A stretch of 64,000 nt of DNA from Escherichia coli O157 typing phage 15, in sequence record KP869113; one strand, given 5' to 3'. This document shows, piece by piece, positions 5,007 through 62,657 of this stretch. Below the pieces are notes generated by a model. That model worked only from the letters and a program-made list of their open reading frames with translations. It made no database searches and was not told where the DNA came from. A program made the translations under genes and the position numbers. How positions within the stretch are numbered: the stretch's first letter is position 1; every line of letters starts with the position of its first letter.

Positions 5007-6422
5007 TTACCAGATATAACGGTCAATCATTACTGCTTTGAGCATTACACTGATTGGGTCAAACTTCTCACCACCAAGCAGAGCTTTTAAAGTGGCTGGA
5101 GAGAACCCTGATACCATTGCTACACCGTTATCCTTAACAGATACTTCGCAAGTACCATTACGGTTTGCTAAGTACCAGAATACCAGTTGTGGCATCTCAT
5201 ATCCAGCTTTTTTGTACTTACTCTGAATTGCTTCAAAGTTTGTACGACCGTTAGCTCCATCAACCTGATTAAACTCCATATCGGAGAAGATGATAAGCTT
5301 ACTTGGCATATCTTTCTGAGTCAAGTTGTTTCTTTTACCTGTTTCAAGAATGCGGTCAAAAGCTGCTTGTAAGTTAGTTGAGCCATATTCAACGTGTCGC
5401 ATCACCTGACGATGACGGTTTCGTAAATCACCACTCAGTTCGATGAAGTGAGGGTTTGTTGAATAAACCATCAACTCATTCTTAAAGCAACCTGTATTGC
5501 GTTCTGCTACATACAAGGCAAGTGATACACCAATATCCAGAGCAGTAATGGAGCCAAAATTCACCCAAGACATTGAACTTGATACATCAGACATACACAA
5601 GATGTTTTCACCTTCTGCCATCCAGTTTGGTAGTGCTTTCCACTGCTCATTAGCAACATCTGCATTACCATACTTGACAGATTTAATCACATCGTATGGG
5701 TAAACAGCACCAGCGTTAATCTTAGTCTCACCTTTTGATAAGGACTCGATGTAAGCTTTGTAACGCTCTCCATCTTTACGGTTAAACAGTTTTTGGTAAC
5801 GTGCAGCAGCAAGTGAAGGAATCTTACTGTAGTCAATCTTACCAAACTCATTAGCAGAGATTTTTTGCTCAACTGTATCAGATAGTGCAGACAACAGTGT
5901 GCGGTACTCTTTCTCACTCAAGTTGGCAAACTTGCAGAAACGTTTTACAAACTGCTTATGACGTGGTTTGACTCGTGGTAACCACTTAGCCGCCAAACCT
6001 GCTGTTGCAGGGTCTAGTAATGCTGCTTCTAAATGTTTGAAGGCATCTGTCTCGAAACGAGTACCTACGAAGATTTTGAAGTCATCAAAACGACCAAGTT
6101 CTGCAATCTTATCCATAATGCGAAGAACCTGCGTAGACTCTAAAACTTTGTCTTCAATCGCTTGAAGTAAAACAGCTCTGAAGGCTTTACGCTCACCCAT
6201 ACCTTCTCGTACATCTCGCATATGCAGTAAAATACGAACTGCAACATCAACATCCTCACGCAAAGCTTTGTAGAACAGGTCTGGTAAGATTTCTACATTG
6301 CTACGGCTTGAACCAGCAGCTTTGTAAAAGTCTACAAGAGCAGACATTGATGAAGTATGGTTTACAGCACCATTTTCAGTTCGACCTGCATGAAGGTGCG
6401 CATGTTTAAATAACTCGCTCAT
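5007..6422 (-). CDS. vWA (MIDAS) domain protein with N-terminal alpha-helical domain; Ro60/TROVE-like or DUF2828-like architecture
   Basis: 471-aa ORF; C-terminal ILCMSDVSSSMSW (DxSxS MIDAS) ... LIIFSDMEF typical of vWA fold; first gene downstream of the tRNA/ncRNA block. Confidence 0.6.
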   Translation of the reverse strand: MSELFKHAHLHAGRTENGAVNHTSSMSALVDFYKAAGSSRSNVEILPDLFYKALREDVDVAVRILLHMRDVREGMGERKAFRAVLLQAIEDKVLESTQVLRIMDKIAELGRFDDFKIFVGTRFETDAFKHLEAALLDPATAGLAAKWLPRVKPRHKQFVKRFCKFANLSEKEYRTLLSALSDTVEQKISANEFGKIDYSKIPSLAAARYQKLFNRKDGERYKAYIESLSKGETKINAGAVYPYDVIKSVKYGNADVANEQWKALPNWMAEGENILCMSDVSSSMSWVNFGSITALDIGVSLALYVAERNTGCFKNELMVYSTNPHFIELSGDLRNRHRQVMRHVEYGSTNLQAAFDRILETGKRNNLTQKDMPSKLIIFSDMEFNQVDGANGRTNFEAIQSKYKKAGYEMPQLVFWYLANRNGTCEVSVKDNGVAMVSGFSPATLKALLGGEKFDPISVMLKAVMIDRYIW

Positions 6423-7501: not shown

Positions 7502-8085
7502 CAGTAAGTTTTAATTACAATAGTGATGGCTCTGTATCAATTAATTCACCATATGCAAATGACCTACTTAAAGAGCTAGTCAATCAGTGTGATAGAGGTC
7601 TTCACTATGTTCAAAATTCTTTTAAACAGAAGACTATTGCTAATAACTTGATGCGTGTAACAGTAACGGCATCGAATCCAAATTATGACTTTGATAGTGA
7701 AAGTCCGTACTCATTAGTTGCGCTTGGAGAGAGCAGCCAATTCAAACTTGTTTGCCACGACTCAGAAACATTCCTTAAGGTCTTTTCCAACCTTATCCAT
7801 AATAATAAGTACAGCTACGTTGATGGTAGTGTAAATTTCTATCCAGCAAACTATACATGTTTGTTGGTTGATAATATGAGAAAAAGTAAGCAAGAGCCTA
7901 CGGAAATTTCATTTGATGTGAACTCTAGTCCAGACGCAGAAACAAGTAAGAACTTTGATATGAGTTACGCATTGTCACTTAGTAAGAAATCCGAGTTCAT
8001 TGATTATGTCAATGGATTTGGTTTTAAGTTTGATGAGAGTATGAATCTTAAAAAACTTAAGAACCTACTTAAGACCAAAGCTTAA
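7495..8085 (+). CDS. hypothetical protein
   Basis: 196-aa ORF, start overlaps previous stop. Confidence 0.55.
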   Translation: MLTVSFNYNSDGSVSINSPYANDLLKELVNQCDRGLHYVQNSFKQKTIANNLMRVTVTASNPNYDFDSESPYSLVALGESSQFKLVCHDSETFLKVFSNLIHNNKYSYVDGSVNFYPANYTCLLVDNMRKSKQEPTEISFDVNSSPDAETSKNFDMSYALSLSKKSEFIDYVNGFGFKFDESMNLKKLKNLLKTKA

Positions 8086-8092
8086 GTGTGAA

Positions 8093-8116
8093 TAGGGGCT
8101 GATGCCCCTTTAACTA
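8093..8116 (+). terminator. terminator-like hairpin
   Basis: aggggc-tgat-gcccct followed by a short T-rich stretch (ttaactattta). Confidence 0.35.
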
Positions 8117-8132
8117 TTTATAAGGATATTTA

Positions 8133-8504
8133 ATGAAAGCTAAGAGTGCAAAAGACTTTTATTGCTTCCTACAATCCTATATCAATTCCGTGCAAAATGG
8201 TGAAAGGTACAACCTTAATGATGTTATCCCAACACCTTTGACATGGAGACTCAGTAAATGGCCTGAAGAAGATATTACACCAACAATCGAACAATGCACC
8301 TACAAACCCGAAATCAATATTCCAGACTCTGAGAATCTATTATATCCAATGTTCCATATTGTTGGTCTTGGAAGATTCCTTATGGATATCCAGTATATAA
8401 TTGGTAAAGGTTATAAGGTTAAAGGTATTGTTGTTGGTGATGTATCTCCGAATCACAAAGGTTATTTTAGGCTAAACGCACATTTAGAGGCTGAAAAGAA
8501 ATGA
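8133..8504 (+). CDS. hypothetical protein, paralog of the N-terminal domain of the next gene
   Basis: shares KRY(D/N), WPE(A/E)DI, YKP(D/E), (F/L)MD(L/I)QY(A/I)I blocks with 8501..9382. Confidence 0.55.
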   Translation: MKAKSAKDFYCFLQSYINSVQNGERYNLNDVIPTPLTWRLSKWPEEDITPTIEQCTYKPEINIPDSENLLYPMFHIVGLGRFLMDIQYIIGKGYKVKGIVVGDVSPNHKGYFRLNAHLEAEKK

Positions 8505-15052: not shown

Positions 15053-15307
15053 ATTTTTATAAAAATTTTATCGGTTGTTCCAACCTCTGGGTCACCATCA
15101 TATGTGAATAAAATATCTATCCTTCTTAACAACCTTCTTAATCTTACTCTCTATATATAGTTATATAGTACTATATAGTGTCTTAGTAACTATCTAGTGG
15201 TCTTAATAGCCCCTCTGTATAACCCTTCTAAATAGCCCTCTAAACACTCTTCTAACAAGCCTTCTTAACAACCTATACAATCACCTTAACCATCTCTCTA
15301 TACGCTC

Positions 15308-15532
15308 TTAGAAGCCTCTATACACCTCACCCCAATAATGGTAGTGAGATTCCTCGTTTATGGCTTCTTTTACGGCATCTTTCCAGAAGTCATCAGTAGG
15401 GTTATAATCTGGTATCACCTGCTGAATCAGCATTTTGATAAGGTCAAAGGTATTATCTGTTCCACCGATATCGAATTTTGCATCAAGTTGGTGGCAGCCA
15501 TAAGCATTAACAGTTACGCGGATAGTTGACAT
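15308..15532 (-). CDS. hypothetical small protein
   Basis: 74-aa ORF preceded by family-A cassette with AGGAG RBS. Confidence 0.5.
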   Translation of the reverse strand: MSTIRVTVNAYGCHQLDAKFDIGGTDNTFDLIKMLIQQVIPDYNPTDDFWKDAVKEAINEESHYHYWGEVYRGF

Positions 15533-21101: not shown

Positions 21102-21308
21102 TTAGGCATCGTAGTAATAAACTGCTGTCTGTCTTATGTACTTTCTTGTATTTCTTGTAAGGTAGCAATTAGAGTTTATAGCTGTTTCTACATAGTTGCA
21201 ATAGTCAGCCTCTGATATTCTAGACCATGCGCCACATACTTGCATGTAAAAACGTTTTACCTTTGTGTTAACGTTAGTTGTAACCATCAATTCACGACTA
21301 TAAAGCAT
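21102..21308 (-). CDS. hypothetical small protein
   Basis: 68-aa ORF; first gene of the array. Confidence 0.4.
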   Translation of the reverse strand: MLYSRELMVTTNVNTKVKRFYMQVCGAWSRISEADYCNYVETAINSNCYLTRNTRKYIRQTAVYYYDA

Positions 21309-21814
21309 TTTCGATTCTCCAGTTTAGGAAGTGGGCTTGCTTGCCCGTCTGATGCAAATAGTACGTAAACTTGTTTGGCGTGTCAACGGTTTTTATTAAA
21401 TATTTTTTGTAAGGTTGGGAAATGAACGGGCGCGCACGACTACCACAAAACAGAACACAAATCAAGAATTATTTTTCAACCCGCTACAAATTTTTCTCTT
21501 GACTTTTGGGGAGAGGTGGAGTAAGAGGGGGAGAGGGGTTGGTCTGGCTCTCTATAAAAACCTACCTGCACGATTCTAAAATGATTTTTCTTGCCCGACC
21601 TGAGCGGGGTCTGCACGTTTTGAAAATGAAAAAGCTCTTTGGAGATTACCTGCACAGTTTGAAAATGAATTTTCTCTTTGGAGTTCAAAATTCTCTCTAC
21701 AGATTTCTCTACAGAACTCTACCTGCACAATCCTGAAATGAAAAAGCCCTCCTTACCTGAAAAATTTACCAGATAAAGAAGGCTTAGTCTATTGTGAATA
21801 TTATACAGAGTTTC
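21309..21814. repeat. non-coding region with four iteron-like direct repeats (CTGCACnnTTnTGAAAATGA) and a G-rich tract
   Basis: repeats at about 21566, 21611, 21648 and 21722; gggagaggtggagtaagagggggagagggg at 21511-21540; no credible ORF. Confidence 0.55.
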
Positions 21815-22600
21815 TTAGTTCTTTGCGTCTAAGAAGGTAACTTCTGGTGAAGAGAAGACCGTCTCGATATCCTCATCAGTTCTTGCATAAATATATGTAT
21901 CTGCATCACTGCCAAATGTTACGGCTATCCTGTGATTGCTCTTCGACAGGTGGGTAACTAGAGCGTTACTTAGAGACATCTTCTCAACCGGAGGGTTACT
22001 TTGATGTATCTTACCTTTTCTTCGTCTGAAGAGGGTAACTGTATCATCTTTGAACGTTACTACACCTGCAAAGTATTCTGGTTCACAGTAGTTATTCCAA
22101 CCTGAGCGTAACTTGTGGTACATCTCTCCTTCGTAGACATACAGATAAACATCTACACTCTTCATCACCTGATTAATGATAACTGTGACGGCTTGAGGGT
22201 CAAGTCCACCGATACCTGCACCAATCATAGGTAAACCAACCTTCTTCAACTGATTAACTTCACAGTATCTGTTAAGCTGTTTCAAAGATGACTCTAAAGC
22301 ACTGTATCGGGCATCTTTACCAGTCTTAAGCTGAGTGTAAAGGTTAGCTATACGACCTTGTTTTAAACGTGCTACAGAGAAATTACCCAGTAAATTTTCA
22401 CAGGGTTTGTGTCCTATACCACCTGCATACAGATAAACTTCTGTATCGGTCTCATATGCTTTTGGGTAAAGTTTAGAAATCTTGTCAGCGATACCTGCAC
22501 CCATTAAATTCATACAGTTGCAACCGTGACCGATGATGTCAAACTTACCTTTATCAAATGCGGCAAAGATATCACCATTAATTATTTTTACAATACCCAT
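21815..22600 (-). CDS. macro domain protein (ADP-ribose binding or hydrolase-like)
   Basis: N-terminus IINGDIF...DIIGHGCNCMNLMGAGIA resembles the macro-domain GDIT / N-x-x-N / G-x-G signature. Confidence 0.5.
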   Translation of the reverse strand: MGIVKIINGDIFAAFDKGKFDIIGHGCNCMNLMGAGIADKISKLYPKAYETDTEVYLYAGGIGHKPCENLLGNFSVARLKQGRIANLYTQLKTGKDARYSALESSLKQLNRYCEVNQLKKVGLPMIGAGIGGLDPQAVTVIINQVMKSVDVYLYVYEGEMYHKLRSGWNNYCEPEYFAGVVTFKDDTVTLFRRRKGKIHQSNPPVEKMSLSNALVTHLSKSNHRIAVTFGSDADTYIYARTDEDIETVFSSPEVTFLDAKN

Positions 22601-49385: not shown

Positions 49386-49749
49386 CTCTTCGTTGTAGTT
49401 CTGCCTTCAATCCATTTTCAATCTTGTCCAGTTCATGAATTTCATCTGCAATCTCTTTCCTTCGTGATTCAACTCTCTTAAGACGTTCAATCATTACCTC
49501 ATTGGAAAGAGATGAGAGTTCCACTAAACGGTGGTCAATAACTTTNNNNNNNNNNNNNNNNNNNNNNNNNNNNNNNNNNNNNNNNNNNNNNNNNNNNNNN
49601 NNNNNNNNNNNNNNNNNNNNNNNNNNNNNNNNNNNNNNNNNNNNNTCAACTCTCTTAAGACGTTCAATCATTACCTCATTGGAAAGAGATGAGAGTTCCA
49701 CTAAACGGTGGTCAATAACTTTAAAATTGTCTTTTACTCTCATCTTCAT
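49372..49749 (-). CDS. hypothetical coiled-coil protein (interrupted by artefactual gap)
   Basis: ORF spans N run 49546-49645 whose flanks are identical, so the true protein is shorter than listed. Confidence 0.3.
   Translation of the reverse strand: MKMRVKDNFKVIDHRLVELSSLSNEVMIERLKRVXXXXXXXXXXXXXXXXXXXXXXXXXXXXXXXXXXKVIDHRLVELSSLSNEVMIERLKRVESRRKEIADEIHELDKIENGLKAELQRRGANV
49546..49645. other. assembly gap (100 N) flanked by identical 76-bp sequence
   Basis: 49470-49545 equals 49646-49721. Confidence 0.95.
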
Positions 49750-51364: not shown

Positions 51365-51964
51365 TTATTTCTCTCTCAGTTGGTTAAGTTTCTTTCTAGA
51401 GCATTTTAAGTTTTCAGATGAAGAAAAGTCAAGTGTCTTTTCAGAACGTGGATAGTAATGCCTGTCCCAAGAAGTTTCAACATCGTTAATCAGTGATGCT
51501 AGATTACACAGGTCTGTACCACTTTGCAACCTCTTTTTAAGAGAATCTAGTAAAGCAACTGTATCTTTAGCTTTACGTCTAGCTATAGCAACGTCTTTCA
51601 TATGCTCGAACACAGAGCATTTTAAGTCATCTTCATAGTCTTCTGATAACTCTATTTCATGTTGTATATCAACCATTCTCCTGTGATGGTGAGCATATTC
51701 CCGTTGAGCAGCAATGTCAAGTTCNNNNNNNNNNNNNNNNNNNNNNNNNNNNNNNNNNNNNNNNNNNNNNNNNNNNNNNNNNNNNNNNNNNNNNNNNNNN
51801 NNNNNNNNNNNNNNNNNNNNNNNNAACTCTATTTCATGTTGTATATCAACCATTCTCCTGTGATGGTGAGCATATTCCCGTTGAGCAGCAATGTCAAGTT
51901 CTTCCAACTTCTGCAAAGCTCTAACAAAGTCAGCTATGTCTGGGTGAACAAACATTTTCTGCAT
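51365..51964 (-). CDS. hypothetical protein (interrupted by artefactual gap)
   Basis: ORF spans N run 51725-51824 with duplicated flanks. Confidence 0.3.
   Translation of the reverse strand: MQKMFVHPDIADFVRALQKLEELDIAAQREYAHHHRRMVDIQHEIEXXXXXXXXXXXXXXXXXXXXXXXXXXXXXXXXXXELDIAAQREYAHHHRRMVDIQHEIELSEDYEDDLKCSVFEHMKDVAIARRKAKDTVALLDSLKKRLQSGTDLCNLASLINDVETSWDRHYYPRSEKTLDFSSSENLKCSRKKLNQLREK
51725..51824. other. assembly gap (100 N) flanked by identical 76-bp sequence
   Basis: 51649-51724 equals 51825-51900. Confidence 0.95.
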
Positions 51965-52130
51965 GTAAGCCTCTTTTAAGTAACTATTAAGTTTTAATCT
52001 TTTATCTTAACGTATTCTATACGTTATACTTTAAAGCTTTTTAAAAGCTATTAAATAATCTTTTAAGAGTTTTAAAGTATCTGTATAGTTAAACTGTTAA
52101 GTAACCTTTTAAGTAAAAACCCACTTCGCA

Positions 52131-54845: not shown

Positions 54846-55817
54846 NNNNNNNNNNNNNNNNNNNNNNNNNNNNNNNNNNNNNNNNNNNNNNNNNNNNNNN
54901 NNNNNNNNNNNNNNNNNNNNNNNNNNNNNNNNNNNNNNNNNNNNNNNNNNNNNNNNNNNNNNNNNNNNNNNNNNNNNNNNNNNNNNNNNNNNNNNNNNNN
55001 NNNNNNNNNNNNNNNNNNNNNNNNNNNNNNNNNNNNNNNNNNNNNNNNNNNNNNNNNNNNNNNNNNNNNNNNNNNNNNNNNNNNNNNNNNNNNNNNNNNN
55101 NNNNNNNNNNNNNNNNNNNNNNNNNNNNNNNNNNNNNNNNNNNNNNNNNNNNNNNNNNNNNNNNNNNNNNNNNNNNNNNNNNNNNNNNNNNNNNNNNNNN
55201 NNNNNNNNNNNNNNNNNNNNNNNNNNNNNNNNNNNNNNNNNNNNNNNNNNNNNNNNNNNNNNNNNNNNNNNNNNNNNNNNNNNNNNNNNNNNNNNNNNNN
55301 NNNNNNNNNNNNNNNNNNNNNNNNNNNNNNNNNNNNNNNNNNNNNNNNNNNNNNNNNNNNNNNNNNNNNNNNNNNNNNNNNNNNNNNNNNNNNNNNNNNN
55401 NNNNNNNNNNNNNNNNNNNNNNNNNNNNNNNNNNNNNNNNNNNNNNNNNNNNNNNNNNNNNNNNNNNNNNNNNNNNNNNNNNNNNNNNNNNNNNNNNNNN
55501 NNNNNNNNNNNNNNNNNNNNNNNNNNNNNNNNNNNNNNNNNNNNNNNNNNNNNNNNNNNNNNNNNNNNNNNNNNNNNNNNNNNNNNNNNNNNNNNNNNNN
55601 NNNNNNNNNNNNNNNNNNNNNNNNNNNNNNNNNNNNNNNNNNNNNNNNNNNNNNNNNNNNNNNNNNNNNNNNNNNNNNNNNNNNNNNNNNNNNNNNNNNN
55701 NNNNNNNNNNNNNNNNNNNNNNNNNNNNNNNNNNNNNNNNNNNNNNNNNNNNNNNNNNNNNNNNNNNNNNNNNNNNNNNNNNNNNNNNNNNNNNNNNNNN
55801 NNNNNNNNNNNNNNNNN
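54846..55817. other. assembly gap (972 N)
   Basis: run of n; left flank duplicated at 59745, right flank duplicated at 60718. Confidence 0.99.
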
Positions 55818-57595: not shown

Positions 57596-57801
57596 NNNNN
57601 NNNNNNNNNNNNNNNNNNNNNNNNNNNNNNNNNNNNNNNNNNNNNNNNNNNNNNNNNNNNNNNNNNNNNNNNNNNNNNNNNNNNNNNNNNNNNNNNNNNN
57701 NNNNNNNNNNNNNNNNNNNNNNNNNNNNNNNNNNNNNNNNNNNNNNNNNNNNNNNNNNNNNNNNNNNNNNNNNNNNNNNNNNNNNNNNNNNNNNNNNNNN
57801 N
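57596..57801. other. assembly gap (206 N)
   Basis: run of n; flanks duplicated at 60894 and 62482. Confidence 0.99.
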
Positions 57802-59644: not shown

Positions 59645-59744
59645 NNNNNNNNNNNNNNNNNNNNNNNNNNNNNNNNNNNNNNNNNNNNNNNNNNNNNNNN
59701 NNNNNNNNNNNNNNNNNNNNNNNNNNNNNNNNNNNNNNNNNNNN
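59645..59744. other. assembly gap (100 N)
   Basis: run of n. Confidence 0.99.
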
Positions 59745-60793: not shown

Positions 60794-60893
60794 NNNNNNN
60801 NNNNNNNNNNNNNNNNNNNNNNNNNNNNNNNNNNNNNNNNNNNNNNNNNNNNNNNNNNNNNNNNNNNNNNNNNNNNNNNNNNNNNNNNNNNNN
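60794..60893. other. assembly gap (100 N)
   Basis: run of n. Confidence 0.99.
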
Positions 60894-62557: not shown

Positions 62558-62657
62558 NNNNNNNNNNNNNNNNNNNNNNNNNNNNNNNNNNNNNNNNNNN
62601 NNNNNNNNNNNNNNNNNNNNNNNNNNNNNNNNNNNNNNNNNNNNNNNNNNNNNNNNN
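62558..62657. other. assembly gap (100 N)
   Basis: run of n. Confidence 0.99.

Follow-up and report, generated by a model that had tools for sequence, protein, structure and literature searches.

The iterons of lambda ori, P1 oriR, T4 oriE, F, R6K, and pSC101 are sets of three to five co-oriented direct repeats of ~20–25 bp, unique to their replicon, asymmetric and suited to a two-headed monomer, variable in copy number, and placed near promoters. Here we describe an array of four direct repeats that resembles them in these respects. It lies in a noncoding region at positions 21309–21814 of the window, by which we mean the whole stretch of 64,000 nt from Escherichia coli O157 typing phage 15 (sequence record KP869113) that was analyzed, and to judge from its sequence it is probably a docking array for a sequence-specific DNA-binding protein. 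It differs from iterons in its spacing (37–45 and 73–75 bp, compared with ~22 bp and 11-bp phasing in iterons) and in having no AT-rich unwinding element, DnaA or IHF sites, recognizable initiator gene nearby, or skew mark.

The sites of the phi29 protein p4 are also four in number, rich in A/T tracts, and set in a short noncoding region with divergent promoters. Located between the early A2c/A2b and the late A3 promoters, together they switch expression between temporal classes, in a phage that is lytic and has no repressor. They are, however, inverted repeats that overlap promoters, whereas those described here are asymmetric direct repeats downstream of a putative promoter. The MuA sites at the ends of Mu (L1–L3 and R1–R3) resemble the present repeats as asymmetric, bipartite sequences of ~22 bp that are read by two subdomains of one protein and have one orientation and irregular spacing. 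But these are transposon ends, while Felix O1-type phages are strictly lytic, with fixed terminal repeats and no transposase.

Like the present array, the injection stop signal (iss) of T5 consists of conserved noncoding repeats ~8% from one genome end that divide the terminal small early genes from the rest. The iss lies in a 10-kb terminal repeat and spans ~1.2 kb, with palindromes, inverted repeats, and about eight DnaA or DnaA-like boxes (bioRxiv 10.1101/866236). Here the terminal repeat is ~0.6 kb and lies elsewhere, the repeats are simple and direct, with only weak inverted repeats in the region (73%–90% over 10–22 nt), and likeness to DnaA boxes is confined to the lineage of Erwinia phages. 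A preliminary description of the region had turned to the T5 family for comparison. BLAST instead identifies the window as a Felix O1-type myovirus (Ounavirinae, Felixounavirus), which rules out kinship with T5, and the region has neither the DnaA boxes of the iss nor its location in a long terminal repeat.

Four direct repeats and their conservation

The four repeats are all on the minus strand. Repeat A has the core TCATTTC-AGGATT-GTGCAG (TCATTTCAGGATTGTGCAG) at 21741–21723 and, with its G-N-T4 flank, extends to ~21747. Repeat B (TCATTTT-CAAACT-GTGCAG, TCATTTTCAAACTGTGCAG; 21668–21650) is preceded by ACTCCAAAGAG-AAAAT, repeat C (TCATTTT-CAAAAC-GTGCAG, TCATTTTCAAAACGTGCAG; 21629–21611) by TCTCCAAAGAG-CTTTT, and repeat D (TCATTTT-AGAATC-GTGCAG, TCATTTTAGAATCGTGCAG; 21584–21566) by GGTCGGGCAAG-AAAAA, a flank that is retained in Erwinia Kolesnikvirus as GGTCTGGCAAGAAAAA. 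The preliminary description had reported four direct repeats and a G-rich tract between an array of small genes and a macro-domain gene, and all of these are present. Two of its plus-strand repeat starts are right (21566 and 21611), while the other two, given as 21648 and 21722, are in fact at 21650 and 21723.

The repeats are unique in the genome. The consensus of the preliminary description, allowing up to three mismatches, has six matches in 64 kb compared with 0.43 expected, the best three of them in the region. The pattern TCATTTY-N6-GTGCA matches without mismatch at these four sites only, in the window and in the ~25 kb of the closest complete genome that lie beyond it, and in the same sequence (~88 kb in total) no site matches it with exactly one mismatch. 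The sequence GTGCAGGTA occurs twice on the minus strand within the macro-domain gene (22213–22221 and 22492–22500), and codes there for G-A-G-I, a peptide of the macro fold; these sites have no TCATTTY half and are not copies of the repeat.

Across 79 distinct copies from 39 distinct loci, the motif is G-N-W4-TCATTTY-N-R-A-W-W-Y-GTGCA-K-R: ~25 bp long, asymmetric and nonpalindromic, with every copy in the same orientation. The centers of its two blocks, TCATTTY and GTGCAK, are ~12 bp apart (about one helical turn), and this internal spacing is fixed. The four positions 5′ of TCATTTY form a run of either A or T, with one C among the 79 distinct copies. The distances between copies, from start to start, are 73, 39, and 45 bp in this phage, 75, 41, and 45 bp in Mooglevirus, and 37, 37, and 39 bp in Kolesnikvirus.

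Positions 21309–21814 match E. coli O157 typing phage 1 at 100% identity and Salmonella phage Felix O1 at 95.8%, and BLAST gives 257 matching phage records in all. Two of the similar records, GU169904 (Staphylococcus phage SA1) and MG065664 (Campylobacter phage A132), contain Felix O1-type sequence at ~85%–90% identity, including the array region, and are probably mislabeled or chimeric. In Felixounavirus, Suspvirus, Mooglevirus, Erwinia Kolesnikvirus, and a divergent metagenomic contig of 88 kb (L030), the array follows directly on the macro-domain gene, so that the conservation in relatives on which the preliminary description had made its reading depend covers at least four named genera, along with one divergent relative from a metagenome. 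Most phages have four copies and some have three; BPSELC-1 has lost repeat B as a clean 39-bp unit. Identity to Erwinia phage Ea_Tu10 is only 34% in the macro protein and 36% at the third positions of its codons, and yet all 44 core positions (11 in each of the four repeats) are identical. The sole systematic change in the motif is G to T at position 19, in Kolesnikvirus and L030. In L030, approximately nine TTAACA repeats follow right after the motif array (reverse strand, ~5600–5760).

Pairs of motifs in IMG/VR are confined to viral contigs of Ounavirinae size, and a search of 185,579 bacterial species genomes gave no enterobacterial match. Its 14 genome matches are unrelated tandem repeats in nonenteric metagenome-assembled genomes and were rejected as bacterial counterparts. 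The array is the most strongly conserved noncoding element that we found in the early region. We found no description of it in the Felix O1 genome paper, its supplement, or the literature retrieved on relatives.

Transcription signals around the array

The region is intergenic, as the preliminary description had it, and both bordering genes are on the minus strand. Upstream is the macro-domain gene (21815–22600; Pfam Macro), and downstream is a gene for 68 amino acids (21102–21308; start codon 21308–21306), the first of the small-gene array. A gap of ~500 bp is also present in typing phage 1, Felix O1, AYO145A, phiSUSP1, and Mordin. It is among the largest noncoding intervals of the annotated genome, in which only the terminal-repeat zone (1641 bp) and one gap of 587 bp are larger. 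Read along the minus strand, the macro stop codon is followed by a terminator, repeat A, a 73-bp spacer, repeats B, C, and D, and a C-rich tract; an invariant A/T-rich block with inverted −35-like hexamers, a sigma-70 promoter, and the leader, ribosome-binding site, and start codon of the next gene complete the series.

The terminator scan places the intrinsic terminator hairpin of the macro-gene operon at 21744–21785 (minus strand); the equivalent in Felix O1 is listed as t13 (PMC3185647). Its T-tract, TTTTTCATTTC at ~21743–21733 (minus strand), runs into repeat A. The stem is retained with a different sequence in Mooglevirus and Suspvirus, and because of its G-U pairs the hairpin is stronger on the minus strand. 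In the 73-bp spacer between repeats A and B, the repeat search found a tandem 12-mer on the plus strand (TCTCTACAGATT / TCTCTACAGAAC; 21694–21717), which is less conserved outside Felixounavirus.

On the other side of the repeats, a promoter-like element that we call P_as (plus strand, 21499–21527) is directed into the array, with TTGACT at 21499–21504, a 17-nt spacer, and TAAGAG at 21522–21527. The purine- and G-rich tract GGGGAGAGGTGGAGTAAGAGGGGGAGAGGGG (plus strand, 21508–21538; C-rich in minus-strand RNA) overlaps its putative spacer, its −10-like hexamer, and the region that would be transcribed initially. In the AYO145A-type clade of Felixounavirus, unrelated sequence takes the place of this tract. 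The −35 hexamer of P_as, with a TA at 17–18 nt, is kept across three unrelated spacer contexts in a comparison of 30 distinct relatives: the G-rich context with TAAGAG, the AYO145A context with TGg-TAGCCT, and that of Kolesnikvirus with TTGAC(G/C)-18-TATACT. This conservation of hexamers suggests that P_as may be active as a promoter. An invariant A/T-rich core (21466–21498) is common to P_as and to a mirror-image promoter-like element, inferred from the alignment, that faces the small genes (minus strand, 21437–21465; TTGATT at 21465–21460, 17 nt, TAGTCG at 21442–21437).

The small-gene array has a near-consensus sigma-70 promoter, TTGACA-17-TACTAT (minus strand, 21386–21358), which the promoter scan reports with 10 of 12 matches. 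Its TTGAC and −10 hexamer are conserved, and an A/T-rich stretch lies upstream at 21390–21412. The 5′ leader of the 68-amino-acid gene (minus strand, 21309–21357) contains a GGGC...GCCC hairpin and a GGAG ribosome-binding site at 21320–21317. Within the array itself the promoter scan has no match in the window. The occasional matches in relatives are no commoner than in shuffled sequences, and information is low at the would-be −10 positions; tandem sigma-70 promoters in the repeats were rejected on these grounds. The small-gene module (~15.5–21.1 kb) also holds at least eight copies of a ~70-bp intergenic cassette, in which a TTTACA-17-TAAAGT promoter-like sequence overlaps a GGGGCTTA...TAAGCCCC hairpin and is followed by a ribosome-binding site; Whichard et al. 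listed part of it as a 57-bp repeat.

Coding potential and a possible function in RNA

Open reading frames (ORFs) of 70–76 amino acids occur on both strands of the region and none of them is conserved across genera, which bears out the earlier judgment that there is no convincing ORF. Two could in principle account for the repeats as coding sequence: a minus-strand ORF of 70 amino acids (21476–21688), in which they would encode a repeated xHFxxVQx peptide, and a plus-strand ORF of 76 (21506–21736). Whichard et al. annotated the former in Felix O1 as gene 14 (70 amino acids, minus strand, 8042–8254), and published reverse transcription PCR (RT-PCR) for "gene 14" was positive. One or the other is annotated in some GenBank records, and with spacings of 39 and 45 bp, repeats B, C, and D of this phage are in frame with one another. 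The frame relations of the copies nevertheless vary by genus (0,1,1,1; 0,0,2,2; 0,2,1,1; and 0,1,2,2) even though every copy is conserved, and Kolesnikvirus has three to five stops in every frame. Translation would have to begin at a TTG start with no ribosome-binding site, the plus-strand ORF has no Pfam match, and the gene has been dropped from RefSeq. We regard a protein-coding role as hardly credible. Many GenBank records annotate "hypothetical proteins" across the region; these are very unlikely to be genes, and their annotation is corrected here.

The repeats might instead act in RNA, either in a plus-strand transcript of ~260 nt from P_as or in a minus-strand read-through or processed RNA, with its four unstructured motifs either binding or titrating an RNA-binding protein, as CsrB does, or marking sites of nuclease processing. 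Their single orientation and flexible spacing would suit such a role, as would the promoter-like element upstream and the hairpin downstream, and the RT-PCR signal from Felix O1 "gene 14" indicates that the region is transcribed. This signal peaks at 25 min, compared with 5 min for genes 13 and 16, but the assay is not strand-specific. Part of its amplicon (approximately window 21513–21604) lies upstream of the start predicted for P_as, and plus-strand RNA is therefore not demonstrated by it. Neither strand has a conserved structure: the RNAalifold covariation term is −1.8 kcal/mol for the minus strand and +0.5 kcal/mol for the plus strand. Folds of the single sequence give z = +0.6 (plus) and z = −2.1 (minus), the latter mainly because of the terminator hairpin, which is weakened on the plus strand. 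Rfam, searched at two thresholds, has no match at the gathering score and a best E-value of 0.18. Folds, RNAalifold on both strands, and Rfam thus show nothing beyond the terminator, and a structured RNA was rejected. The flank of the motif, moreover, alternates between A-runs and T-runs, which are equivalent in duplex DNA and not in RNA. Taken together, these observations make a role in RNA rather improbable.

A probable protein-binding array

A cis-acting protein-binding array is supported by how deeply the motif is conserved, by its uniqueness in the genome, by its bipartite form with fixed internal spacing, and by the absence of any conserved ORF or RNA structure. The blocks at a fixed distance, the A/T-run flank, the one orientation, the redundancy of units, and the uniqueness of the motif are best explained by a protein that binds the duplex. 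We suggest that one sequence-specific protein, most probably encoded by the phage, would bind all four duplex sites. An asymmetric site of two blocks with a run of A4 or T4 would suit a monomer with two DNA-reading parts that also reads the shape of a narrow minor groove.

Motifs for CRP, sigma-54, Fis, the T4 MotA box, the T4 late promoter, boxA, and Chi give nothing meaningful in the region. In a comparison by eye, which gives leads only, with the marbox, the sigma-E, sigma-32, and NtrC half-site sequences, RfaH ops, Tus Ter, and the MuA consensus, none fits. The neighboring genes were rejected as the source of the binder: they have no recognizable DNA-binding domains, and the 68-amino-acid gene is missing from several relatives that retain the array.

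As to what a loaded array might do, its position is suggestive. It immediately follows the terminator that ends the upstream early operon and would be inside the transcribed leader of P_as, which is directed back into that operon. Bound by its protein, it could form a polar barrier to RNA polymerase, or a switch, between two early gene modules, stopping antisense transcription from P_as, read-through from the macro-gene operon, or both. The outcome would be the timing or the insulation of expression of the terminal small-gene module. We favor such a role since the array abuts the terminator, lies within the P_as leader, and is upstream of two promoters of the small-gene module. That the double-stranded array acts as a transcription boundary or switch is nonetheless a tentative proposal. 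The preliminary description had offered an origin of replication, a protein-binding array, or a control region for injection or transcription; a protein-binding array at a module boundary is what the evidence supports, and the specific functions among these options are not confirmed.

Several observations weigh against this reading. Regulators for the most part bind palindromes as dimers, and direct repeats of an asymmetric site are seen more often with replication initiators. The irregular spacing of the sites (37–45 and 73–75 bp), which depends on the genus, makes no defined higher-order complex evident. The sites are ~40–240 bp downstream of the putative P_as hexamers, which is not the classic position of an operator, and P_as itself is a putative promoter with a poor −10 hexamer in this phage, since TAAGAG ends in G. 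The ten flanking ORFs comprise only PHROGs of unknown function and the macro domain, with no Rep-like, helix-turn-helix, or other recognizable DNA-binding domain. Finally, the argument from alternating A-runs and T-runs is only suggestive and may reflect a need for A/U-rich unstructured sequence.

Felix O1 is a classic Salmonella typing and biocontrol phage, and the mechanism that times its transcription was called unknown in the 2010 genome paper. The array is common to the whole subfamily Ounavirinae; it offers a 25-bp bait for the binder, as well as a defined target for deletion or cloning. As a switch or an origin, if it proves to be either, it would account for the way in which these phages organize early expression or start replication, and would be useful for engineering Felix O1-type therapeutic phages.

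Possible roles in replication, DNA entry, and packaging

The first alternative is an origin of the iteron type, with the four sites bound by a phage initiator. Transcription from the flanking promoters and the G-cluster at the start of the P_as transcript would then assist DNA opening or R-loop formation and the loading of primase and helicase, as at T4 oriE and lambda ori. The repeats are unique in the genome, co-oriented, asymmetric, and ~25 bp long, as is expected of iterons (at least three copies of 17–25 bp); three to four copies are typical of iterons. They lie in one of the largest conserved noncoding regions of the early region, flanked by promoters and the G-rich tract, and each Kolesnikvirus copy holds a DnaA box with one mismatch. 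In the literature searched on the subfamily, moreover, we found no report of an origin. Against this, no AT-rich unwinding element adjoins the array, and duplex stability in the region is above the genome average: for 40-bp duplexes across 21281–21840 it ranges from −44 to −58 kcal/mol (genome mean, −49.9), and the 25 windows of lowest stability in the 64 kb all fall outside the array region. No DnaA or IHF site is present here, since TTATCCACA with up to one mismatch, TTWTNCACA, and the IHF consensus with up to one mismatch all have zero matches in the region. Nor is the spacing, which varies among genera, in helical phase (~11n bp), and no initiator-like gene is found among the ten flanking ORFs.

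Strand composition also argues against an origin. The minimum of cumulative GC skew is at ~52 kb, at the divergent junction next to the DNA polymerase gene, and a rightward fork from the array would meet 30 kb of transcription head-on. GC skew at third codon positions (GC3 skew) is −0.216 for the 15 small minus-strand genes that separate the array from the genome end, compared with +0.037 for the 46 minus-strand genes upstream, and differs significantly between 15.3–21.3 kb and 21.8–52 kb (P = 0.00025, Mann-Whitney). Because it shifts so abruptly among co-oriented genes, the array marks a compositional boundary, but the step is opposite in sign to that expected of a bidirectional origin. On balance an origin at the array seems unlikely. 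The least stable duplexes of the window are at 15138–15177, beside the terminal-repeat junction, and at 51971–52087, just inside the start of the DNA polymerase gene at the divergent junction; both are better candidates for an unwinding element than the array region.

The physical ends of these genomes bear on two further alternatives, a site for packaging and a site for staged DNA entry. The terminal repeat is 608 bp in UAB_Phi87 (by Bal31 digestion and run-off sequencing) and 581 bp in Pr103Blw (by PhageTerm). Its homolog maps to the convergent junction at window 15326/15327 and lies 4.4–6.8 kb from the array in five relatives. Unique, oriented repeats in a noncoding region would suit a pac- or cos-type packaging site or a terminal-repeat boundary, and for Felix O1 no protein has been identified as the small subunit of the terminase. 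The ends determined in UAB_Phi87 and Pr103Blw are, however, at the convergent junction, ~6.8 kb from the array; the packaging reading is already largely refuted, and we give it next to no chance.

In Pr103Blw, the array is 6.7–6.9 kb (7.7%) from the right end of the 88.4-kb genome, close to the 7.9% of the T5 genome that is transferred in the first step. Between the array and this end are only small genes, each with its own promoter cassette. The array could be a T5-like pause signal that holds the incoming DNA, or an array of host DnaA boxes that recruits DnaA; the T5 stop region is rich in DnaA or DnaA-like boxes. Each copy in the Kolesnikvirus arrays (L005, L029, and L034) contains CTATGCACA (three copies) or TTATGCACG (one copy), both one mismatch away from a DnaA box, which amounts to four in 160 bp compared with two to four per kilobase around them. 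This lends the reading a little weight. But only four to six of the eight specified box positions match in Felixounavirus, Suspvirus, and Mooglevirus copies (four to five in this phage), no box within one mismatch is found in the region, the divergent positions (GGT) are themselves conserved, and the equally conserved TCATTTY half is left unexplained. A pause is further disfavored by a terminal repeat of only 581–608 bp located elsewhere, and the literature searched on Felix O1-type phages and Ounavirinae contains no report of two-step entry. We consider a DnaA-box array or T5-like pause improbable. A polar barrier to DNA entry or to forks that is independent of DnaA, ending a first-entering "host-takeover" segment, would account for the change in GC3 skew at the array and for the DnaA-like boxes of the Erwinia phages; it would mean that a myovirus with short terminal repeats delivers its genome in stages as T5 does or has a polar stop of the Ter kind, and we judge it quite improbable. 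A protein-binding array at a transcription boundary is the reading that we retain.

The terminal-repeat zone (terminal repeat and flanks of Pr103Blw; L061, 2442–3022, and L060, 582–1100) is full of short TGTTAAG / CTTGTTA repeats and TATAGAG motifs. At 15326/15327 the window is without 1372 bp that are present in the near-identical typing phage 1. The missing segment, to which the 3′ end of the last small gene belongs, is homologous to the terminal-repeat region of Pr103Blw; the gap is due to a deletion, a collapse in assembly, or an edit of the source. The offset of the window relative to typing phage 1 also shifts by ~665 bp between positions 386 and 14001.

Composition of the window

GATC is absent from the 61.6 kb of non-N sequence, compared with ~216 occurrences expected. 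Most palindromes of 4 and 6 bp are strongly avoided (CGCG, 0.16 times the expectation; CCGG, 0.23; GGCC, 0.28), many 6-mers being absent altogether, and TGCA is the most over-represented palindrome (1.6 times). Runs of N account for 2398 bases, at 731–1450, 49546–49645, 51725–51824, 54846–55817, 57596–57801, 59645–59744, 60794–60893, and 62558–62657, and are the cause of the odd GC values in the composition profile.

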